Assembly (NCBI GenBank): GCA_000002435.2
Contig: CM018793.1
Length of the DNA: 64,000 nt
Reading direction: 5' to 3' (one strand)
Source of the DNA: Giardia intestinalis
Taxonomy: Eukaryota
Shown: positions 20,607 through 58,933 of the stretch, piece after piece
Layout of the letters: the number at the start of each line of letters is the position of its first letter
How positions within the stretch are numbered: position 1 is the first letter of the stretch
Notes under the pieces: model-generated
The model's database searches: none
Seen by the model: the letters and a program-made list of their open reading frames with translations, nothing else
What the model was told of the DNA's origin: nothing
Made by a program: the position numbers and the translations under genes

Positions 20607-21494
20607 TCACATGACGTGCCAGAGGACGCAGCAGGCCTCGGCGAGGTTCTTGGACATCGTCTTCCTGATGTCCTTGGCTAAGTTCCCGTAGTGGGCGTAG
20701 AGGACCTTGCACTGCTCCGCCTGGTCGTAGAGCATCCCGGTGATGCGGCAGCAGCGGTCGGTGTCGCCCTTCTTCTGGCAGGCCAGGCTCAGGAGGTAGG
20801 CGGCGCCTCGGGCGGGGCAGTGGAGCGTCGCGTTGCAGCAGCAGAGCGCGAGCTCGTCGTCGCCCTTGTAGGCCTCGATGAGGGCCTGCTCGATCGTCTT
20901 CTTGGCGATGTTCTCGAACGCCTCGGAAATCTGCTTCCACTCGCTGGGGACGGTCGTGCCGAGGAGGCGGATGACCGTGTCCGTGTCCGGGTGCTTGACG
21001 CCGATCAGCGCGGTCTTCAGGGCCTCTGCATCACCCTGGACGTTGTTGCGGGCGGACCTGCAGAAGGCAAGCCAGGAGTTCACCATGCGGGCCCAGACGG
21101 TCTTGGAGCCGATCTCCTTCCTGAGCGTGGACTCGAAGTCGTCCCCGAAGAGCTGGTGGTACCTGTCCTTGACCCTTGCGTAGATCTCAGGGGTCGTCGT
21201 CAGGAGCGTGTCCGTGAGACACCTCTCGTCGTTCCCGCCCTTGAAGGCCTTCTTGATCAGCCTGCAGCGGACGTCGATCTCGTCGTCGAGGACGATCATC
21301 ATGAGGTCCTTGTAGTCCCCGTTCTTGAACGAGGCGTCGAGGTACTCGGAGGTGGTCTTTCCAGTAGCCGCCCTGAACGCGGCGTGGATCTCGGCGCGCT
21401 GCTTGTCATTGAAGTCGGCGACGCTCCTCGCAAGCCCGTCCATGTCCTTGGCGTCGATGAGGGTCTTGATCTCGGTAGCCTTCGCTGCAGCCAT
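20607..21494 (-). CDS. Alpha-giardin (annexin homologue). GC3 is extremely high, as expected for a highly expressed gene.
   Basis: Four annexin-like repeats (e.g. TEIKTLIDAKDMDGLARSVADFNDKQRAEIHAAFRAATGKTTSEYL, GAAYLLSLACQKKGDTDRCCRITGMLYD). Nearly every codon ends in G or C. ATG at 21492-21494 and TGA at 20607-20609. Confidence 0.85.
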   Translation of the reverse strand: MAAAKATEIKTLIDAKDMDGLARSVADFNDKQRAEIHAAFRAATGKTTSEYLDASFKNGDYKDLMMIVLDDEIDVRCRLIKKAFKGGNDERCLTDTLLTTTPEIYARVKDRYHQLFGDDFESTLRKEIGSKTVWARMVNSWLAFCRSARNNVQGDAEALKTALIGVKHPDTDTVIRLLGTTVPSEWKQISEAFENIAKKTIEQALIEAYKGDDELALCCCNATLHCPARGAAYLLSLACQKKGDTDRCCRITGMLYDQAEQCKVLYAHYGNLAKDIRKTMSKNLAEACCVLWHVM

Positions 21495-37285: not shown

Positions 37286-38998
37286 TTATTCTGGATTACT
37301 AGAGGATTCCCAGCCCCGTCCCCTAGGTGTACTGTTACCGCTGGTGCTGCCAGAGCCAACTGTCCCGCTTTCTCCCAGTGAGCTTCCGCTTCCAAGCATG
37401 TGCTCCATGGGCTTAGCCTCAGAAAGTTGCTTGCCTGTAGCCGCTGTTTTCCTGCTATCCTCGATTTGTGCAACGTTTGGATCACTCATTCGACTCAGTA
37501 TCTTATACCGGCACACACTATAAGCAAACATACAGATCCCAATGATCGCTGAAATGGCGTCTCCGATTGGAAATGGAAATAGGTAGTCGCCCTGGTCTCC
37601 GTTCACTGACGCTGTAATGATGAGTATGACTATGGTTGTCACAGTCCTGGGTAGTGGCAGTAGGATGCTCAGTAGTGAGCGACCCTCAAGCTGAGCAAGC
37701 ACAGTCATGATGCAGTACGCCGGCATGAGGGGAGGAGTAATGAAAGCAAGCTTTCCTGTTTGCTTGAGATACTTCTGGAGAAGGATCACGTCGTCAGTGG
37801 GCTTGCGAATTAGAGGTTGGACAGCCAAGAGCAGAGGCTCAGCAAGGGGCCCCAAGATAACGCATACAAGCGTGCTCGCTATGGTCATAAACATGAATGC
37901 AAACAACATGGCCTTGTACATACGCGAGTACTTTCTGAGTACTAAGTTATAGTTTGTAGTGATTGCAAATCCTGATAGTAGCCCATTGTTGATGACATTG
38001 GCTGCCTCACGCATGAGTAGATAGTTATAAAACGCTATACGCCGAGCATGCATAGAGGTACGGTCTGTGTACTTAATGCCGTAGAGTATGTTGACCAGTG
38101 CTACTAACACATCATCTATGGATTCAAGAAACCAGTGCAGCATCCCGATAAGGAAGACCTTTAGTAATATGCGACCATTTAGTGGGAACAGCCGCTTTGT
38201 AGAAAACTTGAGCCCACCTTTCAAGGCTACTTGAAGAACCGTCTTCCGGAAGACGAGCATTGTCAACCAGATGGACACGAACAGATGAGCTATTATGTTT
38301 CCGGTTCCAGCCGCTATCAACCCTCCTTCGTTGGCCGTTGCTCCGTACATATACGCTATATAATACGATATGGAACAAAAGAGTACAGAAAGCACAGAAA
38401 GCAGCCCACTGCGTACAATATCTACAAAGGTACGATTCTCCAGACGAACAAATGGAGACATACCTATAGTCACGACATTGAAGAGCGTGGACATGCCTGT
38501 CATCAGGGCGAAGTAAGGCGTAGAGAAGCTTATTGCAGATGTTGCAGACATCGTTACAAAACAAGCAAGGGATTGATACCAGCTAGTGAAGAGCAAGGGA
38601 ATAAGGAGAGCCCATATCGCCGCCATAAAGAAGTAATGAGAGTAGTAAACGTTGGCGATTTGAATTTGCATTTGCCCCAGTGCACGCCCCGCAAATCTGG
38701 CCGATGCTTTGGCGAGGGCAAGGATAGGGTGCTGGCAAAGGAGAGAAATAATCGGTTGATATGTTGCAAAAAGGGAAGTGGATCGAAAGCCTGAATAATG
38801 AAACACCTGAACGTAAATAACCATCTTCGCTACAACGGCGAGGAGGGAGCTAACAATAGAAGCGCCAGCATGCCTCCAGAGAAGACTGTGCACAGGCTGG
38901 GTGGATAGTTGGAAGATTTTCCCATCGACCATGCTGGATGCCACTGAAGATGAAAAGTCAGAGCTAGCATCATCGGAGCTGTCGTAGTCGTCTGCCAT
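37286..38998 (-). CDS. Multi-pass membrane transporter-like protein with 12 or more TM helices; MOP/MATE/Rft1-like flippase fold is possible.
   Basis: ATG at 38996-38998. Hydrophobic helices are regularly spaced along about 500 aa, with an acidic N-terminus and a Ser/Gly-rich C-terminus. Confidence 0.6.
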   Translation of the reverse strand: MADDYDSSDDASSDFSSSVASSMVDGKIFQLSTQPVHSLLWRHAGASIVSSLLAVVAKMVIYVQVFHYSGFRSTSLFATYQPIISLLCQHPILALAKASARFAGRALGQMQIQIANVYYSHYFFMAAIWALLIPLLFTSWYQSLACFVTMSATSAISFSTPYFALMTGMSTLFNVVTIGMSPFVRLENRTFVDIVRSGLLSVLSVLFCSISYYIAYMYGATANEGGLIAAGTGNIIAHLFVSIWLTMLVFRKTVLQVALKGGLKFSTKRLFPLNGRILLKVFLIGMLHWFLESIDDVLVALVNILYGIKYTDRTSMHARRIAFYNYLLMREAANVINNGLLSGFAITTNYNLVLRKYSRMYKAMLFAFMFMTIASTLVCVILGPLAEPLLLAVQPLIRKPTDDVILLQKYLKQTGKLAFITPPLMPAYCIMTVLAQLEGRSLLSILLPLPRTVTTIVILIITASVNGDQGDYLFPFPIGDAISAIIGICMFAYSVCRYKILSRMSDPNVAQIEDSRKTAATGKQLSEAKPMEHMLGSGSSLGESGTVGSGSTSGNSTPRGRGWESSSNPE

Positions 38999-39066
38999 CT
39001 ACCCACAAAGACAAAGGGCGATCTAGATCCCAAGTAGTTTTTTGAAGGTGCAAAACGACTTCAGAT

Positions 39067-39633
39067 TCACTCTACTCTAACGCCGAGCTCAGTCAGCTCT
39101 TTAATAACTATGTCGACAGCATCCTTGTCAACTGGCCTGGAGCCTTCGCGGAATACACGCACTTCGAACCCTTCTCGGCGGGCGTCGATAGCGCTGTAAC
39201 GAACACAAAAGTCGAATGCCAAACCAACTATGTCGCATGTCTTTATGTGGTGCTCTCGGAGAAATTGTGCTAGTTTGGTTCCCCCGAAGCATGAGTAAGC
39301 ATCCAGATCCACCTTTGTCCCTTTCCGGATGCGTACATCTGTTTTCTCTACCACTAGATCCGGGTGCAGCTGGGCCCCTGGGGTGTCCTGTACACAGTGG
39401 TCTGGCCACAGATAGTCATGATCGCCATATGGAGTGAACGGCTGCTTATTATATCGGGAAGCAAAAGAGCAATGATGTGGAGGATGCCAATCCTGAGTGA
39501 TGACGACCATGTCGTAATGTCTACTTTGGCGTAACTGATTAATAAAGGGAATAACCTCTGCCCCATCGTTGATGCCCAGGGCTCCTCCTTTGCAGAAGTC
39601 GATCTGCATATCGATTATCAATAGGGCGGCCAT
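39067..39633 (-). CDS. Nicotinamidase/pyrazinamidase (isochorismatase family, PncA-like).
   Basis: ALLIIDMQIDFCKGGAL is the isochorismatase N-terminal motif. WPDHCVQDTPGAQ matches the nicotinamidase metal and active-site block. The protein is 188 aa. Confidence 0.8.
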   Translation of the reverse strand: MAALLIIDMQIDFCKGGALGINDGAEVIPFINQLRQSRHYDMVVITQDWHPPHHCSFASRYNKQPFTPYGDHDYLWPDHCVQDTPGAQLHPDLVVEKTDVRIRKGTKVDLDAYSCFGGTKLAQFLREHHIKTCDIVGLAFDFCVRYSAIDARREGFEVRVFREGSRPVDKDAVDIVIKELTELGVRVE

Positions 39634-41001
39634 TTATTTTCTAGCTAAATTTTGTATAGTGACCTTTCCATTGAGAGGACTCGTTCATAGCCCATTAAAA
39701 GCACAATATAAGAACTTCTTGGGTCAATAAGCAGTAGAATTCCATCTTGTAGCCTTTAAAACAGATATACCTCAAATACGCTCTATGTTAGTATTTAGAG
39801 CCAGATATTATAATATTATATCCTGGCACAAGAAATCCACCATGACCGTTCCCAAGAGATGAATTGCAAGGTCACAACAATAAGTCTGTTAATAGAAACA
39901 TAGGTAGATCAGCAGTAGGAGCCGTGATATAGTACTATGTAAAAGACACTTGGTTAATGGTGACCATTGATGGCGCCATAAACAGGTGCTTCTAGCACTT
40001 AAAGAACGTCATCGTCTTGGTTGTAAGGGATATTGAGTTCTCGTAGCAGCAGCAACAACTCAGAAGCACGGACCCAATACAAAATTCATGAGAGATTTAC
40101 TGCTTTACTTTCCCAACACATTATCGCCCATTAGTGCCCTTGTGGTCATTGATACGTAGCGCATAATATCTGCATCAGCACTCTGTGGATGAGGTAGCTG
40201 CTGCTGAGCGGGCACACCCAGAGCCACTGTCGCGTAAGATGCCAGCAAGATCCGCAGCTCCAGAGCACACTGCAATCTGGCGACTGATTTGGTCATGCCG
40301 CTCCTTTGTCCGCTGGAAACTCGGCCGGGAGCGACAGAGACCACGTCGGGAGAACCCAGTGGGAGGGGGTAGGCAGGGCTTCCTGCGCCACGAGGGGAGC
40401 CGCCGCAGGAGGACGCGCAGACACGCACGCCAGGCCACAGTAGACACGCGGACGCCCCTGTAGACCGGGCCGGCAGCAGGCGTCCGCAGAATCCGCGCCA
40501 GAGCCAGCTGCTCAAAAAACTGGGCAGCCTCTGGTCGTGTGCAGGCCTTGCAGAGCACTGCGGCCCCCGACACTCGGCGACCCCTCTCAGAGCGGAAGAC
40601 CCCGCGGGCCGCAGGCAGCAGCTCGTCGTCGGCGATGCCCCGAACGAGGGGGACGGCCCTAGCCTGCCCGCCTCCGCAGAGCTCCGGGCATCTGCAGACA
40701 AACCGGGGCTGCGCAGGGTGCGGCTCTCCCTGGCGGCCGAGGGCAGGGGTCCCCGGCAATACCAAAAAACTCCGATCAATACATCAGCCCCGGCGCCGCC
40801 GTGTGCAAAGCAGTCTGTTCTGTGTGGCGGCCTAAGCCAGCTCGTACTGCAGCGATGGCCCGGGTGAGGGCGCCCTGCTCGCCCGACGGACCGGGGCAGG
40901 CAGGCAACAAACACCCGCTAAAGCTTTTATGCAAGGCCTGTACATATTTAATTTCACATTATTCGTTGGTCTGTTTTTAGTTTTATCGCCGCTTCTATCG
41001 G

Positions 41002-41811
41002 ATGGGCTCTGGGGCAATGACGGCGGAGACGCGCGCCTCCGTTCTGCTCGAGCTCGCGAAGCAGGTCGTCGCTGCCCGGCGGCTGGAGGAGACGGCCGAG
41101 AGCCTCGCGCGGCGGCCGCTGCTCCTCCACCGGCACGTGCTCCGGACGGCCATCGACTGGAAGAAGATCGCCCGCGCCCTGTCCGAGGACCGGAGCAGGA
41201 TCTACCACTGGTACCGCGAGACGCACTCGCGGAGCATCCTCAACGTGAAGATGACCGGCGAGGACCGCAGGGCCATCAAGGCGATGATCATCGCCGGGGT
41301 CAGGGACCGGAGCATCCTGGGCCCGGACTTCTACCGCAGGGTCCACGAGCGCTTCGGGGCGAAGTATCCGCGCCAGGAGCTGCGGATGACGTACAACAAC
41401 GCGCTCCGCACCCAGGACGTCCGCGCCGCCCTGGAGGAGCACGGGGTGGTGCTGCCGCGCCGCACATACGGCCCGAGGGCGGCCAAGCAGGAGGAGGAGG
41501 CATCTCCTGTGGCGGCCACTCCCCCGCCCCCCTGCGTTTTTGGTTGCGCCGCGCCTCCGCTGGTGCCGCCCGTCGGGGGGCCGGTCTTTGTGGCCCCGGG
41601 CGCGGTCTCTGCGCTTCTGCCCCCGCACGCGCCGGGATGCCTCGTCCTCGCCCTCCCACCCGGGGTCGTTTCTGGGCCCGGCGTCCTCCCGCTCCAGACG
41701 GGCCAGGGTCTCCTTGGGCCGCCCGTTGCATTCGCATGCGTGCCATGCTTCCCCCCTGCGGGCTACGGGGGCGTGCCTGGGTGCGCCGATACATACCCCA
41801 GCAAGGGCTGA
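41002..41811 (+). CDS. Extremely GC3-biased ORF. The N-terminal 160 aa are globular with a possible Myb/SANT-like helix-turn-helix (IDWKKIARALSEDRSRIYHWYRETH). The C-terminal tail is Pro/Gly/Val-rich and low-complexity.
   Basis: ATG start. GC3 is above 90% across the first 160 codons. The opposite-strand ORFs are Arg/Pro/Gly-rich, which is typical of antisense to GC-rich coding sequence. The C-terminal third may be non-coding read-through in GC-rich DNA. Confidence 0.35.
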   Translation: MGSGAMTAETRASVLLELAKQVVAARRLEETAESLARRPLLLHRHVLRTAIDWKKIARALSEDRSRIYHWYRETHSRSILNVKMTGEDRRAIKAMIIAGVRDRSILGPDFYRRVHERFGAKYPRQELRMTYNNALRTQDVRAALEEHGVVLPRRTYGPRAAKQEEEASPVAATPPPPCVFGCAAPPLVPPVGGPVFVAPGAVSALLPPHAPGCLVLALPPGVVSGPGVLPLQTGQGLLGPPVAFACVPCFPPAGYGGVPGCADTYPSKG

Positions 41812-43804
41812 AGACTGGAGACCCCGGCTTGCTTGGTGGTTGGCGAAGAGTGGTCGGTAGGAGCAGCTAATAGTTGAAGTCCTGGTCAGTGGCGAGACAG
41901 TCATGCCTAGAGCGTGCAGCATGCTCAACCACGGCACAGCGCAGGGCCCACCAGACGTAGCTTACACATCGTTGAAGAGACCACACACAGCAGACGAAGG
42001 CAGGGCTCTCCCATGTGCCCAGACGACTCGAACACCGCGGTCTGGGCCAACGATCTACCAGACAGGCCCGTCCGGTAACAGGCGACTGAATGCTCTCTGG
42101 GCCGTGAGCTAGGGCTGATGCGCAGCTGGCCGGCCACGACATTCACCCTGGCTGGCCCTCTGTCTTCACGCGCCGACACGCCAAGGAGCTGCAGGCCGGC
42201 TCTCGACACAGACCGATGCTTGTCTCCTTGTTAGCAGGCCATGAGTGGGAGAGTGGACGCGCTCTGTAAATGGCATGCTCGATCCGCTCGTTCGGTGAAG
42301 CTTTTATCAAGAAGAGATGCGATGATTGTCTCACCAGGCGTACTATTGTCTGCGCACCTGTGCCTCAGATGCGGCCACCACGGCGCAGCTGCATCTCCGA
42401 TCATCCTGGGCACACCTCCTGGCACGGGCAGGTGCGCCGGAGGGGTGTACTGCCCACCGCCGAGAAATGGATGAACTCCCTTACCCAGGAGCCGGCTGAC
42501 CACTAGCCGTGCCCAGCAAACCCCAATAAGCAGGCCTGCTGAGCCAACCCATCCAAGAAGCTGTGTATCCGGAAGAGCTTCGCGTCGAATGGCTCCTTGA
42601 TTAAAGAAGCTGGCATCCAGCGCGGCATGACGACTATCCGCCTGGTGCTGATCTGTCTGCTGGGGAACACGCAGACGCCCTAAGCTCCGTGTGAGCCTAT
42701 GTTCAAAGCGTCCTTCACTGGCAGGAGATTCAAGGAACTAGGCGTAGATAGGAAGAGCATTCCCCACTGGTGCCACGAAGTACCGGTATGCTACCTGGCT
42801 ACACTAATGGCAGCGAAGAGCACGAGAAGGTCCCAGGGCCTCATCGAGCGGGTCTGCCCCTAGCAGGCCCAAGTAGACGCTCTCTCCAGCAGTGTACAAG
42901 AAGCCCGGGAGGGAGTGCTCAGGCTGGAGCTGCGGCGTTGCTGGTACAGGCTGTCCTTACTGAGTGCATCCCTCAGCGTCCAATAAGTGGAAAAGTGACC
43001 GGAGCTGGGTGCGCCTGCCATAGGCATCTCTTGGCAATAACGTACAGGTATCGCTGCAATCTAGTGTGCATCCTCTAGTGCCCCACTTCCCCCTGTGGTC
43101 AGTGTATCTCTAGGGAAGGCAGGCCCTTTTGAAAAGGTATTGACCTGGGATCATGAAGGAGCGCGGGGCACTGCACTGGGTCTGTACACAGGCCAGAGGC
43201 CCGTAGCCGTTGGCCAGCAAGGTCCGGGTGCGATGGTCGAGTGTTCGTCCGTCAGAGCCCTCAGGATGGTGGCCAGAGGACAGGAGCGACGCCGGTCGGT
43301 TATCGACGCAGAACGTGCAAGGCCCCACAGGCGAGGAGCACAGAAGAACACAGGGAGCGTGGGGCCACTGGCAACCCGTAACTTTTTATATCTTGGCGGC
43401 CGGTCTCAACACTTCGTAGGTGCAGATATGAGAAGCTGGGCCGAGTGATCTGCTGGTGGAGGGACCGACACACACTTCCTCAAGGGTTCTGCCATGGGTG
43501 ACGATGATGGTAGGCCGCACCACTGCAGGTTCGTCCCTTTGCACTGTAGCAGAGCCAAGGCATATCGGTCTACTGTTATGTGACGCCCTTTTTCAAGATA
43601 GGTTATGATTGTACAATCTGATTCAAGGTGTTATACTATTCTAATGAGGTCTTCATAACATGAAGCATTGCAAAAGTAATCCTTCAAATTCACCCTCAGA
43701 AATCAGCATATTTCTTACAGCTTAAGAAGTTTTCAACCACGCGTGAAACTATCGAGCGTGTAATTGTTTAGTTTATAGAAATTGAATTTACCAATTTAAA
43801 CGCC

Positions 43805-45775
43805 ATGGCAAATCTCGTTCTGAACCCAGCCGGGGAGGCCAGGGCGCGCACGCAGTATCGCTGCTTCGAGTACCTGAGGCTCCTTGTAGCTGCGGCGGGG
43901 CACGCTTTCGACGCGTACGGACTCGGAGACAGCAACCGAGACCGCTATCTCGGCGACTGCATCCAGCGCACAGACATCTTGGAGCTCGTCGTCTGTGCTG
44001 CAGGGTGCGCAGCAGCCGGGCCGTCCAGCGCGCCTCTGGATGCCGATTCTCCCAAGATGGACTTGCACCTGCCAGAGGCCATGGGAGCTAGCGGAGCGGT
44101 CCTCCCAGCAGCGGACCCGGCAGAGGCCCACCGTCGCTACCAGAACTACTGCACTGAGATGAACAGGGTGCATCCGGACCCGCTGCACCCCGCGCCCGAA
44201 CTGGCGACCACGGAGACATACTTCAAGCTCGTCGATCACCTTTTCTCCTCTTTGGTCTATGTGGAGAAGCTCATGGGCACCCCGAAGATCGACTGGAACG
44301 CAGACCACTTCACCCTGGACTACAAGCCCTGTCCAGACGAGGTCAAGCTGGTCATCAACCTTGACGCAGAGGCCATTAGCGCCATGGACAACAATAAGGA
44401 TCTTCAGAGTAAGCCAAACTGGTGCGCAAACAGGGTATGGTACGTCATGATTTTGAGCTTCATTCTTGGCTTTTCACTGAGTCTTGTGGCTCTCACCATC
44501 CCATTTTACCTAACATACCTGGGGGCTAATGCATCTCAAACAGCGAATCTACAATCCTTCTTCAACCTCACACAGCTGTTCTTCTGTCCGCTCTGGCTTT
44601 GGCTATCGGAGATAATTGGCCGCAGGCCAGTTTATATAGTTCTCTTTGCCGGATACGCGGTTACCACTGGATTGACTGGACTTGCACCGATCATCTTCCA
44701 AGCAAGAGACAATTCTAAGACACACTCTCAGGACCAAATCAACTACATCCTTGGAATGCGCTTCGCCACAGGTATTTTCGCGTATGCCATTCCTATTGGT
44801 TTTGTTACTGTTGCTGATCTCGCTAGCCCCCGCGCGCGTCCAATGGCCCTGATCGCAATCAATGTCATGACTTTAATTGGCACAGCAATAGCTTCTATAA
44901 TAATTGCTTTTATCTTCACCATTGGAACCTATACAGGTGACAATGTGAAATCATTCCTTCATACATTCTATCTTGCAATTGCTCTGTTAGTGGCCGGCCT
45001 CGTTTTCTCCTGCTTCTTCAAGGAGTCTTCTGCAGGCGTTATAGCCCGCAAAGCTGCCAAGAAGATGGGCAAAACGGACTCCCAGGCATATAAGGCCAAC
45101 GTAAGGCGGGATAGCTTCTGTGTGACATTCAAAGATATTCTGAAGAACAAAGAGCTAATTCTGCTCTGGTTTGCATATGTCTTCCAGATCTTCTGTACTC
45201 AGCTTCCTGTTGCCACTAGGGGTTTCCTAGTTGCGAAGTTCTACGGGTTTACAAGTGCACAGGAAGCTAAGCAATTGAACGCTCTGTCAGATATCGTTGC
45301 GATCGCTATTACTGTCTGCTTTATACTTGGCTTGACCCGCATCATAGCTAACAAGATTGGAGAGCTCCGTATTATTGTAATCTCTGTCTACTTTGCAATG
45401 TTTCCTTCGTTGTTACGTTGGGCGGTAGATCCACCCATTCCCAAGTGGATAATGTTCCTTCCCTTCAACTCCATCGCTTTCAGTCTTGGGGATGCCCTCT
45501 TCATCCAGTTTGCAACGCTGTACACGACACCGAAAAACCGCGGGACGCTTCTCGGGCTCTTCCAGATCGGAAATAGCATCGGAAGGTTTGGAGGGGCGCT
45601 CATAGGCGGCGAGCTCTACAACTGGAACTGGCGCAATGGGTCGATCTTCTTCTTGCTCTATGGCTTCGCGTCGCTCCTCTTTCTGTGTTTTGTGAAGCCA
45701 CCCCTTGAGCAGAACACTGCCGCCCAGATAGAGCAGAAGCAGCTGGAGCAGAAGAGGCGTCAGGCATCTGTCTAA
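43805..45775 (+). CDS. Major facilitator superfamily (MFS) transporter with a roughly 200-aa soluble N-terminal extension.
   Basis: ATG start. Twelve hydrophobic helices span from about aa 205 to 610. LWLSEIIGRRPVYIVLF resembles MFS motif A (G-R-R between TM2 and TM3). Confidence 0.65.
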   Translation: MANLVLNPAGEARARTQYRCFEYLRLLVAAAGHAFDAYGLGDSNRDRYLGDCIQRTDILELVVCAAGCAAAGPSSAPLDADSPKMDLHLPEAMGASGAVLPAADPAEAHRRYQNYCTEMNRVHPDPLHPAPELATTETYFKLVDHLFSSLVYVEKLMGTPKIDWNADHFTLDYKPCPDEVKLVINLDAEAISAMDNNKDLQSKPNWCANRVWYVMILSFILGFSLSLVALTIPFYLTYLGANASQTANLQSFFNLTQLFFCPLWLWLSEIIGRRPVYIVLFAGYAVTTGLTGLAPIIFQARDNSKTHSQDQINYILGMRFATGIFAYAIPIGFVTVADLASPRARPMALIAINVMTLIGTAIASIIIAFIFTIGTYTGDNVKSFLHTFYLAIALLVAGLVFSCFFKESSAGVIARKAAKKMGKTDSQAYKANVRRDSFCVTFKDILKNKELILLWFAYVFQIFCTQLPVATRGFLVAKFYGFTSAQEAKQLNALSDIVAIAITVCFILGLTRIIANKIGELRIIVISVYFAMFPSLLRWAVDPPIPKWIMFLPFNSIAFSLGDALFIQFATLYTTPKNRGTLLGLFQIGNSIGRFGGALIGGELYNWNWRNGSIFFLLYGFASLLFLCFVKPPLEQNTAAQIEQKQLEQKRRQASV

Positions 45776-47978: not shown

Positions 47979-50900
47979 ATGTACCCAGTGCTCCGGCTGT
48001 ACCTCAAGACGGCCAGGGTCCATCTTTGTCTCTACATCTGCATGATTGTCATGCCGGTCGTTGTGATGGCCGCTGTCGCCCTCTTCTTCTCGTTCGAGGA
48101 TAGACTGCAAAGCCCTAGCAGCGGCCTAGGCGAAGGGACTCTCCCGCGCCTCCCGTTGTGCAGGGACCTGCCTGGTTGCACGAGCCAGACCGTGTACCTT
48201 GCATTCTCCCCCGACACGATCGAGGCACGCCGGGTCGTTGACAGACTCGTCCAACAGAACGGATTAGAGTCGGAGCGGATTGTTGCCGTAAGGGACCGCG
48301 CAACGATGCAGAGGCTTGTGGCCGGGAAGAATCTCGGCCCGAGCTTTGTCGATGACGTGATTGCGGCCAACCTGGGAGAGACGGTGCGGGGGCACCTCCT
48401 AGGCGCCGATGGCTCCCTTGCTTCGATCCTCACCCCGCGGAAGGTCCTTGCAGACAGGGATGTCGTTACAGAGATGCTCGACACAGCGTACGGGCTTGAT
48501 GACAGAACCCTGGATGCGTTCGATGACGAGTGGGCCGCGAGCATGGGACCGGCCGACAGCGTCTTCCTCGCGCTCGACCTAAACATCTCAAACCGGGAAG
48601 CGTCAGACATCCCGCAGGCCGTCCAGTACTCACTCTGGTACAGCCAGGAGATGATGGCCCGGTACGCTGTCAAACACCCTAGTCCACGGACAAGGTCCTC
48701 GGCGCCTAACTCACACGCCATGTCGTATGTGTGGAGCCCGGCGTCCTTCAGCATTTTCGAGGCGATTCACAACGCCCTGACGGAAACCTTTATCGACAAA
48801 ACCATTTCGTACAGCCTAGGAGAGTATCCGTCGCAAGGCTCGACCACCACCCTTGCCGGGATGCAGGCGTATATGATTCTCCAGCTTTCTATCTTCCTTG
48901 AGTGCATCCTGACCCTCATCTTCGCGGCGCACTTTCGCGGGCCCTTTCAGACCACGCTCCGCCGATTGGGTGTCTCGGAGTTCTGCATGTACGGGCTCAC
49001 GTTCGGCACACTTTTGATCGCCAACCTCTTGGCATACGGACTTCTCTTTGGTGCTGGCTCGCTCTTCAAGCTGTTCCCCTTCTCAAGCTACACTCCTTCT
49101 CTTAACGCCCTTGTCAGCATCACCTTCGCCCTCATCACCACCGCCTCCGTGCTGCTCCTGCACATGTTCTTCTACAACACGTCGGTGGCAATTGCCTTTG
49201 GGACGGTGGCCCTGATTCTGCTCGTGGCATTTCCCTTCTTGATCCTCCTCGAGGAGCCTAGCTTCCCTACAATTTGGACGCAGCTCGTCGTCCCAACCTG
49301 GCTAACAAAGGTCTTCTACGTCCTTTTTCCTCCCTTGGGGCTCGTTGCCATCTGCGACATGCTGGTCGCTTTAAGACCAGAACGTACCAGTGCTGAGCTT
49401 GTTGTACCGACCTACAGTCAATATGGGTTTGAGATTCTATTTAGTGATATTAACAATTACCATTCTAATCGATACGTATGTTCAGGAACTGTTAGTTTAG
49501 GCACAAGCGGATGTACCTTCCAACTTCCTTACCTTGGATCTCTTGTCGTCACGTCCCTGGTCCAGAGCATCCTAGCTCTTCCGCTATTAACTCTGGTTCT
49601 CCTATTCTGCAAACACGAGCCAGGCTCACAAGGGCTTCCCCTCGGCTTCCTTTGCAGCCGCAAGTTCTACCGTACAAGGCGCCCCAAGGACAACCCGGAG
49701 TTCCCCTTTCTGTTTGTCTCAGGGCTTCGGAAGACATACCGTAAGGCAAAGAGATGCACGGTCGTCAAGGAGGAGGCGCTGTGCGGGCTGGACTTGCACC
49801 TTAAGCAGGGAGAAGTCACGGGCCTCGTCGCGACAAGCGGCGGCGGAAAGTCCACAGCCCTGGGGATCATGGCTGGCGAGCTGGCGCCCTCTGGCGGGCA
49901 GTGCGCAGGGCTCGGACACGATCTCCTCTGCCCGTACACCGCACGGTCCCTGCGGGGGTTCATCTCGCTCTGTCCCCAGGAGTGGAACAACCTCTGGATC
50001 AACCTCACTGTCAGGGAGAACGTTCTTCTGTGCGCAGAGATCCGGGCCAGGGTCACGGGCCGCCTCGGCGAGCTCCAGCACAGAAACGGGTCTCTCGACG
50101 GATACGTCGACGAACTCCTGAAGCGCCTCGGGTTGCACGACCACGCGCACAAGCAGGCGTCTGCCCTGTCTGGGGGGATGCTTCGTCGCCTGGCCCTTGC
50201 AAACGCAACGGCGGGAGGTCCGCGGCTGATACTTCTCGACGAGATTACGGTGGGCGTGGACCCGATCCTGAAGCGCCAGATCTGGGCGTACGTTCGCGCA
50301 CTGGTCACAGAGGGCGCCGCAGCAGTCCTGTCCTCCCACGACGCCAACGAGATAGCAGAGCTAGCCACTCGCGTTGTCGTGCTCAAGGCCGGTCGGACGC
50401 AGGCCGATGCCCCTGTTGTGCAACTCCTTGAGGAGCATGGAGACTACGTGGTCTCAGTGACGTCAGAAAGCCGCGACGCCATTTCACGAGTAGCGCTGCT
50501 GCTCTCGACGGAGCTAGGGATTCTGCTCGGAGTTGGCGCTAAAGAGCTAGGTGTTACAATGGACCCACGGCGTGCCAGCATATCCATCCCTGCAGCACTA
50601 GTCCCAGATGCACATGCTCTGGCGGGTCTGGTGCAGCATTGCCGCGCCTTCGAGAAACGAGAGGGCGTCCAGGTTGCCGTCTCACGGGCCCGGCTGGAGG
50701 ATGTCTTCGAGCACCTGCTGGATGGCGAAGACGACGCGCAGCCGGAGCCTCTGCGCTCAGTAACTCTGGACGAGGACAGAAAGCCCTCCGTGACGCGCCA
50801 CCTGCTGCTTCTCTTCCTCTCCCTGGACCTTCAAGAGCACTGCAGAAGCTTTGCTTCCATACTTGCTGCGCTGACTGCCCTATTTGTGCTAATTTGGATG

Positions 50901-53450
50901 GGGGTCCGTTATACTCTTACTAGCGTCACAAATATCACTGAGTCAGTAGAGGCAGCGCAACTTACTGAGTGGTCTCTGTCATGCCTTGCTGACTGCATCA
51001 ACGCCAATCCCGGTGCAGACCCTTTGTTGATAGATGCCAATGTCACAATTGAAAACGTAAGCGAGTTTTTGAAAGCCAACCCAGGAGTCGATGCCCTTCA
51101 GGTCATGGAGCGCTGCCTGGTGAAGCGTCCTCGGCGACTCTTCGAGCCAATGCTTCAGTATCCAAATGGATTCCCCGTCTGTCTTAGCTACATGAATCAC
51201 TTGGGCCTCGACACATATCGCTACGATTACTTGACCGTTGGGGATCGTCAGACAGGATCCCTGGGAACCAACGAGACGCAATTCAGTTGGTACTACATTG
51301 GCGTAGTAGGTGACGCTTCGAAGGTCGAGACCTCAGACAGCATATCATTGAGCCTGTCTCTGGACGACCCTCTTATAGCAGGCTCTCCAACGGAAGGGCT
51401 TGACTATTATGTCGCAAACGAACCCCAGCAGATCTCTTTCTCTCCCCAGAACTTTGGGGATGTGTGGAGGAGGGGCGTGGAGGCAGGCCTCAGACACCCC
51501 TTGGACTCCGATGACCTGTTCTCGTTTGTGGCCCCCCGCATGACTGTACCTCAGCATTTTCGCAGTGACACATCTGTGCCTTTGACAGATGCAGAGGATT
51601 ATGCACTTCTGCTTGAGGAGACTATTCTTCGCCAACCCACGGCAAGTGACTTCTTTGAGGGGATTACGTCTACAATTGGCAGCACGTTTATTAAGCCAGA
51701 CTGCTTCGATTCACAGCCGGCTGTACAAGCACGTGTGGTTCGCAGGGTGTTCAGAAGCATCCCTGCGGTTATCTTTCAACCAGGCCAGCACGAGGCAGGC
51801 AGTGCATTGCTTCTCAAGATGTACACTATGCTTCCTCCTCTCGGGCCACAACGCAAGGCCTATCGTGATTGGGTCATTACCTTTACTCCATCAGCAGAGC
51901 GGGCCGATATGCTGGTATCTACCTCGAAATATTTAATCCCTACCTTATTTCAGTATATGAACGAATCTCTTAAGAATGCCGTTGATATTACAAAAGCAGA
52001 TCGTGTCAGATTCACATTCACGACGATTGGGGCGGATGCGATGGCCAAGATGACCGGCGCTCTCTTCCGTCAGCACCTCGTAGAGTCTCTTCGGGACACG
52101 CTTGGTGTAGAGGAGGCGTGGCGCCAAGGCACGGAGTTCACCTATGACGGGTCCGTGATGAGTATCCCTAGGCGGTATCTGAACAGAGATCTCATATTCG
52201 AAACTCCGGGGGCAGCCCTGCAATCGATGGAGATAATGAGTGACTACTACTTAGTGTTCCTCTTGTTGCTAGGAAGCGTCATTGTAGCTGGCCGCGCTGC
52301 CCGGGAGTTTCAGCAGCGCACTGTGACCCTCCTCCGCCTCCACGGAGCCTCTGAAATACGCGTTGTCATGGTTCTTATCCTGTACTTCAGCATCTGGACC
52401 ATCACCCCCACAATACTGATTGCAGCGGCCTTGACAGCACTCTTTAAGGACGCCTTCTTCATCCACGGTCCTGCAGTGGCCGCTGTCGCATATACCTGCC
52501 TGGGAATGATAGCTCTTTCCAGTGTGTTCAATGCAGTCCTAGTGGCCGTGCTCCTTCGTTCTCAGCAGAACGCCATGCTGACCGTGGTTCTCCAGATCCT
52601 CGTCGCTGTCTTTGTCTCCGGCTCTCTCAGGGCCGAGGGAGCAGTGGCCGCCGTCCTGGGCCTTCTGGCTCCTGGTGTGGGGTACATGCCCGTGCTGCGA
52701 AACGCCATAGGACTTAGCCGCATTAGCTGGGGGTCTCTTGCCCTCTCGTTTCTGATATCGCTGCTAGAGGTCTTTGCCTCGCTTGGCGTGCTGCTGCTCA
52801 GGAAGATTCGGGTCCGCCAGAGGATCAAAGACAGGACCCCTGACGGATCAGATTCAGAGGAGTCTGGACTGCTGAGTGGGCTATCAGAAACAACCTCCAT
52901 GACCAGCCTCAACTTAGAAAAGAAGGATGCGCCCCCTGGGCACCCTGACAACCACCTCAGCGTGCAGGGGATCTCGCACAGCTATCGCAAGGGCGCCCAC
53001 GCGCTCGACAACGCCTCGTTTTCGGTGCCGGCGGGGAGCATCTTCGCCCTGCTCGGCGCCAACGGGGCCGGGAAGTCCACGATGATGCACGCCTTGACAG
53101 GAGTCCTGAGGCCGACTGCTGGAAGCGCTCTCTGCGTGCGTAACGAGGCCGACAGCAGACGGGTTGACCTCTTCCGGCGGGTCCACCACAGCCGGTACAT
53201 CACAGTTGTTCCCCAGCACGACCTTTACTGGCCGCAGCTCACGGTCCGCTACCACGTGAAAATCATCCGAGGGCTCACGCCCAGGGCACTTCGGCCAAAC
53301 ATCAAGTCGACGGACCACGTGCTCCGCCTGGTGGGGCTGGCCGAGCACGCCGACAAGAGGGCCGGTGCGCTCTCGGGCGGGATGCGGCGGCGCCTCACGC
53401 TCGCGATGGTCCTAGTCTCGTCTCCCTCGCTCATCTGCCTCGACGAGTAG
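47979..53450 (+). CDS. ABCA-subfamily ABC transporter (TMD-NBD-TMD-NBD), 3'-truncated inside NBD2.
   Basis: The first ATG is at 47979 (the track ORF began at a TTG at 47925). TM1 is followed by a large extracellular domain and a TM bundle. NBD1 has GGGKST, LSGGMLRRLALA and ILLDE. TMD2 follows. NBD2 has LLGANGAGKST, LSGGMRRRLTLA and the Walker B LICLDE, and then stops at 53450 with no D-loop or H-loop. Confidence 0.8.
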   Translation: MYPVLRLYLKTARVHLCLYICMIVMPVVVMAAVALFFSFEDRLQSPSSGLGEGTLPRLPLCRDLPGCTSQTVYLAFSPDTIEARRVVDRLVQQNGLESERIVAVRDRATMQRLVAGKNLGPSFVDDVIAANLGETVRGHLLGADGSLASILTPRKVLADRDVVTEMLDTAYGLDDRTLDAFDDEWAASMGPADSVFLALDLNISNREASDIPQAVQYSLWYSQEMMARYAVKHPSPRTRSSAPNSHAMSYVWSPASFSIFEAIHNALTETFIDKTISYSLGEYPSQGSTTTLAGMQAYMILQLSIFLECILTLIFAAHFRGPFQTTLRRLGVSEFCMYGLTFGTLLIANLLAYGLLFGAGSLFKLFPFSSYTPSLNALVSITFALITTASVLLLHMFFYNTSVAIAFGTVALILLVAFPFLILLEEPSFPTIWTQLVVPTWLTKVFYVLFPPLGLVAICDMLVALRPERTSAELVVPTYSQYGFEILFSDINNYHSNRYVCSGTVSLGTSGCTFQLPYLGSLVVTSLVQSILALPLLTLVLLFCKHEPGSQGLPLGFLCSRKFYRTRRPKDNPEFPFLFVSGLRKTYRKAKRCTVVKEEALCGLDLHLKQGEVTGLVATSGGGKSTALGIMAGELAPSGGQCAGLGHDLLCPYTARSLRGFISLCPQEWNNLWINLTVRENVLLCAEIRARVTGRLGELQHRNGSLDGYVDELLKRLGLHDHAHKQASALSGGMLRRLALANATAGGPRLILLDEITVGVDPILKRQIWAYVRALVTEGAAAVLSSHDANEIAELATRVVVLKAGRTQADAPVVQLLEEHGDYVVSVTSESRDAISRVALLLSTELGILLGVGAKELGVTMDPRRASISIPAALVPDAHALAGLVQHCRAFEKREGVQVAVSRARLEDVFEHLLDGEDDAQPEPLRSVTLDEDRKPSVTRHLLLLFLSLDLQEHCRSFASILAALTALFVLIWMGVRYTLTSVTNITESVEAAQLTEWSLSCLADCINANPGADPLLIDANVTIENVSEFLKANPGVDALQVMERCLVKRPRRLFEPMLQYPNGFPVCLSYMNHLGLDTYRYDYLTVGDRQTGSLGTNETQFSWYYIGVVGDASKVETSDSISLSLSLDDPLIAGSPTEGLDYYVANEPQQISFSPQNFGDVWRRGVEAGLRHPLDSDDLFSFVAPRMTVPQHFRSDTSVPLTDAEDYALLLEETILRQPTASDFFEGITSTIGSTFIKPDCFDSQPAVQARVVRRVFRSIPAVIFQPGQHEAGSALLLKMYTMLPPLGPQRKAYRDWVITFTPSAERADMLVSTSKYLIPTLFQYMNESLKNAVDITKADRVRFTFTTIGADAMAKMTGALFRQHLVESLRDTLGVEEAWRQGTEFTYDGSVMSIPRRYLNRDLIFETPGAALQSMEIMSDYYLVFLLLLGSVIVAGRAAREFQQRTVTLLRLHGASEIRVVMVLILYFSIWTITPTILIAAALTALFKDAFFIHGPAVAAVAYTCLGMIALSSVFNAVLVAVLLRSQQNAMLTVVLQILVAVFVSGSLRAEGAVAAVLGLLAPGVGYMPVLRNAIGLSRISWGSLALSFLISLLEVFASLGVLLLRKIRVRQRIKDRTPDGSDSEESGLLSGLSETTSMTSLNLEKKDAPPGHPDNHLSVQGISHSYRKGAHALDNASFSVPAGSIFALLGANGAGKSTMMHALTGVLRPTAGSALCVRNEADSRRVDLFRRVHHSRYITVVPQHDLYWPQLTVRYHVKIIRGLTPRALRPNIKSTDHVLRLVGLAEHADKRAGALSGGMRRRLTLAMVLVSSPSLICLDE

Positions 53451-55585
53451 GGTAGACAGAGGCGGTTTACTACGTAATATGCGCGCAAGGCGGTAAGGAC
53501 ATTGGAGGGGAGGCAGCCTCACGACGGAGGGGAAGGGCCCGCCCGGGGCGCCCAGCCCCCGTGCCCGCGTGGTCTCGCGGCGGGGGCGCGGCCAGGGGGG
53601 CCTTCTCCCCAGCTCCAGGGGTATGCTCCTGTGCGCGGGGGCGCGCGGGTCACGGCCAGGGGGGCCAGGCGCTGCAGGCTGTGTGTTAGTGGATCCGCGG
53701 AGAGGGCGGCCTGCGGTGTTAGGGCATAGCGGCATGCAGACATACAGGCCCGAGGGAGGCGTGCCATGTGAGGGGGAGTGGTAGGGGGGCATCCTGGAGG
53801 ATCGATGGCGAAGGTGCCGATCCTCCTCCGTGGCGGCGCAGGAGTCCTGGATGAGACGTGATGGCGTGGGTGCTTGGCCTTTGCTCGAGCGCATGGTGTG
53901 GGTGGACCGATTCCCCGCATCCTCCAGGCCCTGCGGGGGCGGTCTTCAGGCCCAAATTCTGGATTTTGGAAAAAATAAAATCCACCATGAGCGTCGCCCC
54001 GGCGCAACCAGCAGGCCCTGGGCCGCGGAAACAAAGAGACAAATAGCCCGTGGACCAAGAAGAGTGCAGGCCTGTTTGGGGGGTAGAAGACGACGCGTCG
54101 GGCCAGAAACCCAGGGATCCAGGATTCCAGTCAAAGGCAGGCCTACAGACCGGCCCACTGCACCGCGCACATACGCGAGGCACCATAATGCTGTTGCACT
54201 AAAAAGGGAAGCGCGAGCCCAGAGAACCGGCGAGGAAACAGCTTGGGGGTGGAGGGGTTTGGGGAGCCCAAATTCTGGCCCATCGACACACGGGGTGAGC
54301 TGTGGCCGGCCCAAGGGGACAGCGTGGACAGGTGTGTGCAGTGCCCCATATAAGGATGCACGATGGGGATCGGCCGGGGCCACCGATTCGGGGGACAAGG
54401 GAGACGCGTCCGGACTGTCCCCGGGAGTCCGTGAGAAGGGAGGGTGCGGACCGTGCACCATAGCTAGCCCATCCACACGTGTCGTGCTATTCCAGAATGG
54501 TGGCTCACCGGAGGCGTCTGGCCAAGATGGCGGGGGCAGCGGGGCGGTGGTCCCATACGGCCCAGGAGGCCGACAGAAGGTCACGCCTGAGAGAGCAGAC
54601 TGACGGCTTAGGAGGTGGTGTGGGGAGGCACGGGTGATGGAGGAGGCCCCCTAAGGGCGGGTCCAGGCTGATGACGCCAGCTCAGGACAGACCGGCAGAG
54701 CGCCGTGGAGCCATATTCTTCTGTGCGTGCCAGTCCCATCTGTGACAAGCAACCCATGTGGTGCCAGCGCTGGTGGGAGGCATGTGGCCCAGGTATGGAG
54801 CGAAACCTGGGGGCCCGGCCGGGACTGTCAACAGCCGTCACCGCGACTCAGCGGAGACCGAGCAGGAGAGGTAGAGAGGAGCAGGGGAGAATGGGCCAGG
54901 CAAACACAGGCGCATGAGGGATGGCCCATTGGAGGGCAAGCACCTGGAGGCCAGGGCCAGAGTGACCAGGTTCCCTGTACCGGGGCGCCCAGAGTGGGTA
55001 CATGAGGGGGGGCAGTGGGGAAGCGATGCACCCGAGGGCTCAGTAGCACATAGCACCCGGCCATCCTCTCCAGGGGGCACCGGGGCGCTGCAGCAGAGGA
55101 TGGCCCGAGCCAGGGCTGTGCCGCCCCGGACCGGAGGCGGCCACTGGCGGGCAGTTCCATGGGGGGATCAGCACGGCGCGGTGCGATGGTACGAATGACA
55201 CACGGGGCTAGCCTCTTCCCCCAGCACCAGCTCGCCAGACTCAGCACCCAAGGACCGCCGCTGCCCGGGAGGACAGACAGACGAACACCGGGCTGCGGCG
55301 TGGGCAGATGACGAGTCCCATCGAGGAAGTGCCCAAACGTAGGCAGGGCGGGTGTCTGGCCATCCAGGGGGGCGTCCGGCCTGGCCCGGCCTGGTCGAGT
55401 GTGTATGGCATCGCGGCTAGGCATCTATCGCACCGTGTCTGGACGTGATGCACACCCGAATGATAGGGGCAAGAGGCCTCGGGTGCGAGCGAGGAGTACC
55501 AGGGGAGACAGCTCGGCACGCAGGCCCAGGGGTCCGTTCGCGCTGTGGGGCAGCCGACAGCGGGCAGGGTGCCCAAGCATGACCA

Positions 55586-58500
55586 CTAGCGCCCCGTGTC
55601 GATGCGTTTGAAGGGGTAGAAGCCATCAGGGGCATGCGGCTTGGGAGGACCGACGCGCTTGAAGAAGGACGGCAGGGCCTTGTGCACCGGCTCGGGTGCT
55701 CCTGCATCGTCGGGGCTGTCGTCATCCAGTGGAGGCGGGGAGGGGGCCCTTGAGCACATGAAGGGGTCTGGGCGTTCGTTTGCATCCGGCTGTGCGGGGT
55801 GATCGGTGCCCCAGGTGATCGAGGAGGAGACCTCAGCAGGACCCCAGGGAGGAGGGACTGCCGCATCAGGATGCTGGCTGAGATCGGCCATGATCTCTAC
55901 GGAGGGCGACGTGCCAGGGCTCCACATGGCAGGGGTGAGGGGAGTAGGAGGAGTAGCCCGAGCCTCGTTGGGAGCCGGTTCCGGCAGGGATACTGCAGGG
56001 GCGGGGCGGTGCACCGGCCTCTCCACTCGCAGCCCAGCGTACAGGAGGGCCGACAGCCTGTAGTGCCAGAGGATGACCTGCGCCGCCTCCTGCATGAAGC
56101 GCGCAAGGTCCACGCCGGCGAACGCGAGTCCGGCCGCAGACAGGTGGTGCAGGACGCCGTCAGCACCGACCACGACGGGGAGGATGTGGGCCGCCCGCCC
56201 CTGGAGCACGAGGGGGCGATACTTGGCGGCCTTCAGGGCATAGGACCGCTCCAGCCTCCACGGGACAGTGACCACCAAGTCCCCGAAGCCCCCACCGATG
56301 ACAAGGTCAGGCTGGAGGTGATCCACTGGGATCGTGGGATTGCGCACAACAGACCCAGCGCGACCGCGGGAGCACGCGAGCAGGGCGTCCAGAATCTTGT
56401 CGTGCCGCGCCACGTGAATCCCGTTAATGGCCTTGCACACCAGATGGTGCCTGGGAAGGAAGGGCTGCTTGCAGTGGCAGCACGTGCCCATCGGCCGGCC
56501 CCGCTGGTACCTCCCCGCCAAGCAGTCCCCTATGAACAGGACCTGCGTGTTGTCCAGGGGTGCGCAGCCCAGCAATGCGAGCGGCAGGAAGGATCGGAGC
56601 GCGGCCGTGTCCTGCAGGCGCTTCTTCCTCAGCTCGCGGAAGACGCCCGCCTTCATGTCCTGGCGCTGCCTGTGCATCTCGTCGTAGTAGTGATGGGGCA
56701 GCACCAGTCCGAGGCCGTACTTCGCGCGGGGCGTCAGAGCAAGGGTCTTCGCAAGGGGTTCGGGGATCTCCAGAAGGGTCGCGACCTCCTCCACTATCTG
56801 CGCATCGACGTCGGCATAGGGGGACGGGCCCGGGTAGTCGTCAACAAGGGGTCCATAGTTAACTGCAGGGACGACGCAGGCAGACAGGAGCCTGAGGCGG
56901 TCGTGGAGTGAGAGACCCGAAGCACGGAGGACGGCGAGATGCTCGTGGAGCCGGCGGGCCGATGTCTGCGCGAGGTTGAAGGAGGAGTGCTTGAGCACGC
57001 GGGTGCCCATGAAGGAGATCGCCCCGGCCTGGGTCGAGGAGCACTTCGAGAGCTCGACCGTGAGCCCTATGCGGGAGAGGGCAGACTGCGCGTCACTCTT
57101 CACGGTATCTATGGGAATCGCCTCCTCTGACGCAATGACGAGGTCGTCGGCGTATGCAACGACCTTGTACTGGCCGAGGTACGTCTCCACCGGCCAGACA
57201 AGGCTCTGGCAGAACATCGCCATGGACAGCGGGTCCCCCTGTGGCACGCCCGCTGGGACCGCGGGGAGGTCCGAGGAGTGCCGAGCCGCGAGGAACGACT
57301 CAATGTACGCGACGGTCGGCTGGACCACCCCTGCCCGGCGGAGCGCAAAGAGGATGACGGAATGCGGGACGCTGTTGAAGGCATTCCGCACATCCACCGT
57401 GAGCAGGTGGTGTGTCCTCTTCAGCTCCTCGGCCGCGCGGATCGCCTTCATCTGGGCGAGGTGCTCAAAGGCCAGCTGCCACGCCGGGAGCTTGCGGAGC
57501 GCGGGAGTCCGACGCAGGAGCAAGCGGTGGAAGGCGACCAGAAGCGTCTCCTGCACTGCGATAGGGCGCCATCGGCCGCCAGACTTGGGCAGAAGCTTCA
57601 GCCTGAACTCGCACAGGGGCTGGAGCTGGGCCCAGTTCCTGCTGGAGAAGAGGGTCGTCAGGACAGAGGTGAAGAGCTCCGCAGCCCCGGCGGCCCCACA
57701 AAGGTGCAGGAGGTGAGGCTTCCCCAGCCCAGAGGGTCCGGCCGCGACAGGCCTCATCGCCTGCAGCTCCTTCAGCAGCGCCTTGGCCGTTATCTTGGGC
57801 GACGGGCCGAGCACGTGATGGACGGGGGGCAGAGAGACAGGCATGGGGCGCGGGTGGAGCTCATGGACAATCGCTTCCCGCTCCTTGCCCTGGGGCTCGG
57901 GGACCCTGGCGGCAGAGGACGTCTCGCTCAACAGCGCCTGCCATGCCCGGCCGAGCAGCCCCTTCCGGAGAAGCGACTGCGCCGGGGGGAGCCGTCCAGA
58001 GCCCTCCATGCGGCGGCACGTCGAGAGGAAGCGCGCTAGGGCCTCTACAGGAGGAAGGCGCCCCGCCATCTCTGTGAATACGTCAGTGAGGAGGCGAAGC
58101 AGCTCAGGGGACGGGCTGCCACTAGGCACCCCGATGCGCTCGGGGACTGTGGCGTCGAGCGGGAGGTAGTGGCCGAGCCTGGCGATATGGGCCTTCAGCC
58201 CCCTCTCCGTTTTGTATCGGGCCCGGCACATGCTGCATGCATACGGGAACACAGGGTCCGGCGTTGGCGAGGGAGAGGGCTCGGCGGCTGCAGGTGGAGG
58301 GGCAGACCCCGACAGCGGAGAAGGGCTGCGCGACGGAGAAGGTGAACCGGGAGGCGGATGGTGCATCCCGATGTGGACATCGATCGCCGCAGAGTCAGGC
58401 AGCACCTCTCCGCAGCGCTCGCAGACAGTCGTACGGCCCCCAGGAGCAGGCAGGTCTGCGCCCCGGGCCTCCTGCTCGTCCGTGATGGACGGGGAGTTGT

Positions 58501-58915: not shown

Positions 58916-58917
58916 GG

Positions 58918-58933
58918 TTTTTTTTTTTTTTTT
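58918..58933 (-). repeat. Poly(A) tail (A16) of copy B at the inter-element junction.
   Basis: T16 on the plus strand lies immediately distal to the copy A ATG (…AAAAAAAAAAAAAAAACCATG… on the minus strand). Confidence 0.85.

Follow-up and report, generated by a model that had tools for sequence, protein, structure and literature searches.

A GC-rich island on chromosome 5 of Giardia intestinalis contains one copy of a dispersed, gene-bearing repeat unit

How does a gene-poor, strongly GC-rich island come to lie in the very compact genome of Giardia, whose few recognised repeats are the VSP, NEK and ankyrin families, ribosomal DNA (rDNA) and three families of long interspersed nuclear elements (LINEs)? 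The question is raised by positions 39634-43804 of a 64,000-nucleotide stretch of chromosome 5 of Giardia intestinalis WB C6 (assemblage A1; GenBank assembly GCA_000002435.2, contig CM018793.1), which we call the window. An earlier note on this DNA had placed the interval correctly: it lies between the end of the nicotinamidase gene (minus strand) at 39633 and the start of the MFS gene at 43805. The proteins encoded on either side match the DinF-like protein, nicotinamidase and MFS transporter of WB exactly. The note had taken the island for either a decayed mobile-element relic of the GilD type or a recently acquired, highly expressed gene flanked by the remains of such an element. We favour a different reading, with a probability of about 0.6: the island would be a copy of a dispersed repeat with an intact, host-type gene, together with the flank of the MFS gene, and its GC-richness would stem from GC-biased gene conversion (gBGC) among the duplicated copies.

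Rather than one object, the island consists of four parts, and the gene lies in a GC-rich dispersed repeat unit at 40239-42651 (plus strand), 2.4 kb long in this copy and about 3.2 kb in a fuller one (L001 9224-12395). L001 lies in another genomic context, beside a RING-finger gene, and matches the window at 93% identity over 40239-42195 (L001 9224-11193) and at 73% over 42368-42651 (L001 11247-11487). The copy at locus L017 of P15 (assemblage E), beside a kinesin gene, is 83% identical to 40238-41531 (L017 9241-10533). Positions 41516-42642 are collinear, at about 70% identity, with L008 9149-10275, a copy that lies downstream of the divergent paralogue DHA2_153000 and lacks the upstream arm. 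The left end of the unit is sharp and falls on the same base (40238/9 of the window) in WB, L001 and P15 L017, that is, in three genomic contexts. On the right, the mutual homology of L001 and L008 runs about 0.9-1.1 kb further than the window copy; near 42651 the latter is thus either truncated or rearranged. To suspect a repeated element was justified insofar as 40239-42651 is a dispersed multicopy unit, but this unit is in all likelihood no retroelement. The 90%-identity cluster of the gene product, GL50803_114778, has 17 members, among them DHA2_153281 and seven WB loci (the others are GL50803_61066, GL50803_60974 and its duplicate d60974, GL50803_103981, GL50803_137682 and GL50803_112150). 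WB has at least seven near-identical copies, located on four chromosomes (contigs of 4.02, 2.76, 1.97 and 1.54 Mb), and the seven proteins are 94-97% identical. The island is present at the same locus in assemblage A2, and GC-rich copies are found in assemblages B and E.

Synteny breaks between the nicotinamidase and MFS genes, about 10 kb from an array of GilM-type retroelements, and copies of the unit neighbour VSP, NEK, ankyrin (Ank) and retroelement DNA. Regions of this sort are where duplications of single genes build up in Giardia. According to Xu et al. (2020, PMC7000408), duplications, most of them stretches with one gene, make up 6.9% of the WB genome, and synteny is lost at multigene-family regions. 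Together, the breakpoint and these single-gene duplications favour duplication in a recombination-prone region over mobility, and the unit probably spread by duplication rather than by transposition. It resembles the published single-gene segmental duplications in being a short one-gene stretch dispersed over chromosomes, and the multigene-family regions in its position at a synteny breakpoint beside VSP, NEK, Ank and retroelement DNA; it differs in its discrete left terminus, in its unusual GC-richness and in that its family is not among the named VSP, HCMP, NEK and ARP families (PMC7000408). As single-gene duplications are already known in the Giardia genome, the unit is nothing categorically new. 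The corresponding sites of other assemblages are occupied differently: in P15, retroelement-like DNA directly abuts the nicotinamidase gene on its upstream side (L018 1-1040) and the MFS gene has a VSP gene upstream (L019 1-6664), while VSP and ankyrin genes lie upstream of the nicotinamidase gene in GS-B (assemblage B, L005 1-10000).

The open reading frame (ORF) at 41002-41811 (plus strand) is exactly as the earlier note described it and is the one real gene of the interval. It encodes the 269-aa GL50803_114778, already annotated as a hypothetical gene, with a helical N-domain (41002-41480) and a disordered Pro/Gly/Val-rich tail (41481-41808). Its codon periodicity is extreme, with 0.99 GC at the third codon position within 41101-41400. 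No canonical AGTRAA polyadenylation signal occurs within 150 nt past the stop codon. Over this ORF the island aligns with a known conserved Giardia gene of the same composition, a result that the earlier note had named as telling against its view. A search of 5.8 billion proteins returned Giardia sequences only, 20 Giardia homologues in all. Their N-domain alignment spans 155 residues, of which 44 are invariant, including the RIYHWYRETH and RQELRMTYNN motifs; the Pro-rich tail varies, apart from a short motif kept at the C-terminus. When the N-domain was used in an exhaustive profile search, the family grew to 72 relatives, including proteins of Hexamita inflata and GL50803_38275. The family therefore occurs across diplomonads and is old. 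With the island present at the same locus in A2 and GC-rich copies in B and E, the idea of a recent acquisition is not supported. The longer relatives (639 and 926 aa) contain no transposase domain, and profile scans of viral contigs and JGI metagenomes gave no relatives. Searches of the literature by gene ID and two supplement searches yielded nothing on the family, nor does it appear in the searched supplements of the localisation atlas. A single-copy homologue of 44-46% identity, P0060, was also seen in L012-L016 (Logan runs SRR3602117, SRR3596244 and others), where it is tightly packed among genes in a Giardia-like genome of 0.46 GC and has a GC content at third codon positions (GC3) of 0.46-0.49.

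The Myb/SANT-like helix-turn-helix proposed for the protein stands at the level of the fold; no significant Myb/SANT match was obtained with sequence profiles. AlphaFold2 models residues 8-146 as nine helices with a confidence score (pLDDT) of about 90, with the tail below 50, and the N-domain model has the geometry of a three-helix bundle with a helix-turn-helix. At E<=1, Pfam returned no families for the ORF, Myb/SANT included; a profile search of PDB sequences gave nothing below E=0.18, and hhalign against c-Myb R2R3 gave E=0.13 over 23 columns. Foldseek found no PDB match at E<1, and matches to viral structures were not significant. In common with Myb/SANT/homeodomain proteins (Cdc5/CEF1, SNAPc4, c-Myb R2R3, TRF1), the protein has the pattern 'W..IA..L....R.....W' at residues 53-70 and, as read by eye, a second unit with aromatic substitutions at about residues 85-135. 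It differs from them in an extra N-terminal helical extension and in the lineage-specific signature RIYHWYRETH, RQELRMTYNN. On the predicted structure, the N-domain consists of Myb/homeodomain-like three-helix units in a diplomonad-specific protein, and GL50803_114778 would be a putative nuclear DNA-binding or regulatory factor.

The account that we favour has three steps. A single-gene unit would have spread by duplication in a recombination-prone breakpoint region, ectopic recombination among the copies would have led to concerted evolution of the unit, and GC-biased gene conversion during this exchange would have produced its high GC and extreme GC3. The loss of the orthology signal is apparent from the unit itself. 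WB and A2 are 99-100% identical in the flanks; inside the unit, private sites number 41, 45 and 48 in WB, the A2 orthologue and the L001 paralogue, so that the three copies are equidistant. The WB protein differs from its positional orthologue by 11 residues and from four of five WB paralogues by 7-10; the fifth, GL50803_103981, has another C-terminus and 17 differences. Certain variants are confined to one genome: one to two DHA2 loci, others to WB_114778 and WB_60974. As the positional orthologue is no closer than the paralogues and variants are shared within genomes, the orthology signal has been lost in the unit. Private variants run towards A and T, with 85 changes from G or C to A or T against 40 in the opposite direction (p=7e-5 against the 1:1 expected at equilibrium). 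Since GC nevertheless stays high across assemblages, something opposes this decay in the long term. Between WB (A1) and DHA2 (A2, L002), 200-bp bins of 40200-43599 contain 0-5 mismatches in genes and AT-rich spacers and 1-2 in the N-domain of the ORF, but nearly all bins of GC-rich non-coding DNA in the island contain 5-21, most of the single-copy part at 42652-43599 included; bin 43000-43199 is an exception with 2. This type of DNA in the island seems to evolve several-fold faster.

The base composition points to a force that acts on the region rather than on codons. In 200-bp windows, GC rises from 0.35-0.43 at 39600-40100 to 0.64-0.77 at 40200-41800, is 0.55-0.67 at 41800-43500 and falls to 0.32-0.43 at 43500-43800. 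The background of the first 46 kb, with the island set aside, has a mean of 0.486, a standard deviation of 0.051 and a maximum of 0.68. The figure of 65-70% GC given for the island earlier is valid for its left half alone, as the right half has about 0.60. The island peaks at 0.765, a value equalled in the window only by the GilM array at 53-64 kb, and its likeness in composition to the telomeric retroelement was thus rightly noticed. The ORF has an overall GC3 of 0.885 (0.96 for codons 1-160 and 0.77 for the tail), against 0.94 in alpha-giardin, 0.80 in the GilM ORFs and 0.39-0.67 in the other genes of the window. Alpha-giardin (20607-21494, minus strand) served as the internal reference for translationally selected codon usage. 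It prefers C-ending codons (for example, CGC 7 vs CGG 0, GTC 12 vs GTG 1), whereas the N-domain of the ORF uses C and G equally: the four-fold sites are C42:G45 in the N-domain and C85:G35 in alpha-giardin (Fisher p=0.0014). The non-coding arms of the unit have 0.60-0.72 GC. The assemblage B copy has a GC3 of 0.93 and flanks that are GC-rich yet no longer alignable, while the single-copy divergent paralogues have an ordinary GC3 of 0.64 (N-domain of DHA2_153000) and 0.46 (L012). Equal use of C and G, GC-rich arms, the B copy and the single-copy paralogues therefore indicate a regional compositional force and not optimal-codon selection. GC-biased gene conversion, known in other eukaryotes from rDNA, histone genes and further multigene families, is probably that force. 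The unit resembles these families in its GC enrichment at both synonymous sites and non-coding flanks, with C and G equal, in its blurred orthology signal and in its AT-biased private variants. It has what would be looked for in such a system, namely near-identical copies at multiple loci, orthologues no closer than paralogues and GC enrichment without preference for C or G. It differs from them in that conversion in the unit is presumed, that the neighbouring single-copy DNA is GC-rich too and that recombination in Giardia is poorly characterised.

Several observations weigh against this account. The single-copy DNA at 42652-43560 is also GC-rich (0.55-0.62), and its A1-A2 divergence of 2.5-5% exceeds the background of about 1%; as it is single-copy, exchange between copies cannot explain either property. 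Differences between orthologous copies are mostly private point changes and not clear conversion tracts, and our literature search found no report of gBGC in Giardia. The DNA comparison inside the unit covers three copies (WB, the positional A2 orthologue and the L001 paralogue) together with the protein variants, a limited sample. The left terminus, identical in three unrelated contexts and two assemblages, is what a mobile element would show, and selection on GC3 for expression may also have a part. In its full form, the latter explanation takes the gene to be very highly expressed and amplified for dosage, with GC3 a product of selection for translation or mRNA stability at synonymous positions, and with transcription making the flanks GC-rich as a side effect. 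It would account for a GC3 of 0.96, on par with alpha-giardin, and for the conservation of third positions between assemblages A and E (5/83 and 3/76 differ) where the arms differ by 18-35%; the putative promoter is conserved, and seven copies would increase dosage. We nevertheless consider it unlikely, because C- and G-ending codons are used equally, unlike in the C-preferring alpha-giardin, and because the arms on both sides look non-transcribed and are equally GC-rich. Literature and supplement searches gave no expression data for any copy.

Could the unit instead be a discrete mobile or mobilised element, whether as a non-autonomous DNA element or, through retroposition by the GilM/GilT machinery, as a gene cassette? 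The whole unit would then insert, with the gene as a passenger or as the unit's own DNA-binding factor. Besides the shared left terminus, this would fit the common right end of L001 and L008, the L008 copy without its upstream arm, as if 5'-truncated, and the company of VSP, NEK, Ank and retroelement DNA. We compared left ends with reverse-complemented right ends for terminal inverted repeats: one pair scored weakly (p=0.002), the other five gave p=0.06-0.6, and no robust terminal inverted repeat emerges. One inverted repeat lies near the ends (40228-40246 / 42609-42627, 79% complementary), and L001 has not kept it; within the island, searches for repeats turned up only short matches of the kind expected by chance. 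No transposase, reverse transcriptase (RT), endonuclease (EN) or integrase was found in any frame, no duplicated bases flank the left and right ends examined, and the right ends of L001 and L008 have no A-tail. No empty site was found: the insertion is present in A2, so that it is older than the A1/A2 split, and B and E are rearranged at the locus. The gene's relatives, in Giardia as in Hexamita, are ordinary host genes in single copy. Mobility of the unit is therefore improbable, and we are also doubtful of a more specific version, in which a unit of 2.4-3.2 kb is a new mobile or mobilisable cassette with defined termini and its own Myb-like gene for DNA binding, its copies kept homogeneous and GC-rich by biased conversion. 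Such a cassette may be the Myb-type partner surviving from an extinct DNA transposon, or a LINE-mobilised gene. A decayed non-LTR retrotransposon of the GilD/Genie-2 type, with the ORF captured or a chance gene, is the least credible reading, and we consider it very improbable. A relic of this kind would be expected to have a poly(A) or simple-repeat 3' end, or a flanking inverted repeat such as is reported for Genie 2. The unit shares with GilD/Genie-2 and GilM/GilT a GC-rich, repeated and interstitial character, stop-free pseudo-ORFs and proximity to the GilM array, which it resembles in composition; retroelement-like DNA lies upstream of the nicotinamidase gene at the P15 site, and RT remnants are scattered in WB (PMC7000408). 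By contrast, it has no RT/EN remnant, an intact non-RT gene and no similarity to the Gil elements compared. Neither 40239-40920 nor 41812-43600 yielded an RVT, endonuclease or zinc-finger domain when translated in six frames and scanned against Pfam (E<=1). The concatenated six-frame translation of 42150-43560, compared with the 5.8 billion proteins in a phmmer-type search, had no match at E<=0.001, though low-complexity candidates may have saturated the list. Comparisons of the island with the GilM array (blastn, tblastx) yielded noise, with at most 33 bits in tblastx and with the GilD consensus not among the sequences compared, and there was no match to the RVT_1 element in L008 at E<=1e-4. 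Finally, the right 0.8 kb of the island is an MFS flank conserved in assemblage E. The GilD-like relic proposed at the outset is thus not borne out.

Duplication of a host-type gene with biased conversion among its copies remains the reading that we prefer, and the individual parts of the interval can now be described in turn. Positions 39634-40238 are an AT-rich unique spacer (GC 0.35-0.53), the 5' flank of the nicotinamidase gene, and lie outside the repeat. They are 99.5-100% identical to the A2 loci L002-L004 and have no homology to the paralogous copies; the A2 short-read contigs L003 and L004 stop at 40225 of the window, 13 bp short of the repeat. The unit opens with a non-coding arm of 677 bp (40239-40915, GC about 0.70), which is open in all frames, with frame ends that differ in each copy. 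It is 65-82% identical to the P15 copy, with indels of 1, 2 and 4 bp and substitutions without a codon-phase pattern, and a six-frame Pfam search of it found no domain. An AT-rich, promoter-proximal segment of 86 bp precedes the ATG (40916-41001, plus strand), and GC falls to 0.54-0.56 at 40800-41100. Conservation between assemblages A and E reaches 93% in this segment, against 72-82% in the neighbouring arm, and its last 30 bp or so can be aligned even to the assemblage B copy. Initiator regions in Giardia are short and AT-rich, and by this analogy the segment is a putative promoter. Downstream of the gene, a non-coding arm of 840 bp (41812-42651) has nucleotide-level homology to L001 and L008, tblastx matches in all frames with no consistent reading frame, and no Pfam domain.

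Beyond the unit, a unique GC-rich spacer of about 0.4 kb (42652-43031, about 0.57 GC) has the orthologous A2 locus as its sole match and no protein homologue in six-frame searches. The last 0.8 kb or so (43032-43804) is GC-rich at 43032-43560 and AT-rich at 43560-43804, and aligns at 66% to L019 5985-6664, which in P15 immediately precedes the MFS gene. Its indels are not multiples of three, and its tblastx matches fall in all frames. This DNA is therefore the ancestral non-coding 5' flank of the MFS gene, and not the element debris by which the gene had been thought to be flanked. No other non-coding segment is as well conserved between WB and P15 as its AT-rich stretch at 43590-43740. The P15 MFS ORF begins about 66 nt earlier (678 vs 656 aa), and the annotation of the WB start codon and promoter may need review.

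The rest of the earlier description of the interval largely holds. No coding signal was found in 41812-43804, in agreement with the absence of a gene from about 41870 to 43800, and long Arg/Pro/Gly-rich pseudo-ORFs do fill every frame on both strands of the island; they are not kept as reading frames from copy to copy, and Pfam gave nothing relevant for the overlapping ones. Spacers elsewhere in the window, given as 10-150 bp, are mostly 2-150 bp between large ORFs, but a few reach 0.6-1.4 kb. Weak codon periodicity at 42300-42900 raised the possibility of coding, which we rejected, as stops occur in the frames and the WB-A2 substitutions have no phase pattern. Two minus-strand ORFs (40105-40914 and 40175-40765) were likewise rejected as genes, because their frame ends vary by copy and the P15 indels are not multiples of three. 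A scan of 38500-45000 against Rfam at E<=1 detected no RNA family, and the island is therefore neither rDNA nor a known non-coding RNA.

Two further regions deserve mention. The GilM-type array is tandem, occupies 53851-64000 with a period of 5,476 bp, and has repeated ORFs at 53851 and 59327. An ORF with RVT_1 and C2H2 domains lies at 55589-58915 (minus strand), and a second, cut copy at 61065-62699 (minus strand). GilM is 5,474 bp long and is found at the 5' end of chromosome 5 (PMC7000408). With this array the window reaches a region of chromosome-end type about 10 kb from the island. A 1,823-aa ABC-transporter ORF (47979-53450 region) abuts the array. At L008 8001-9434, the DHA2_153000 ORF stops at 8879, and a homologue of the Pro-rich tail resumes in the same frame at 9156-9434 (tblastx E about 1e-17). 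This in-frame remnant suggests that an insertion of about 0.6 kb gave DHA2_153000 a new C-terminus.

Gene regulators in Giardia are scarce and poorly known. The unit adds a near-identical, seven-copy and unstudied gene for a probable DNA-binding protein, which could matter for gene regulation. As a multicopy family, it will be a source of confusion when reads are mapped and orthologues called. The locus also provides a small, clean test of whether gBGC influences the base composition of a tetraploid and supposedly asexual protist, with sharp contrasts at hand: multicopy against single-copy paralogues, and equal use of C and G against a highly expressed gene that prefers C.

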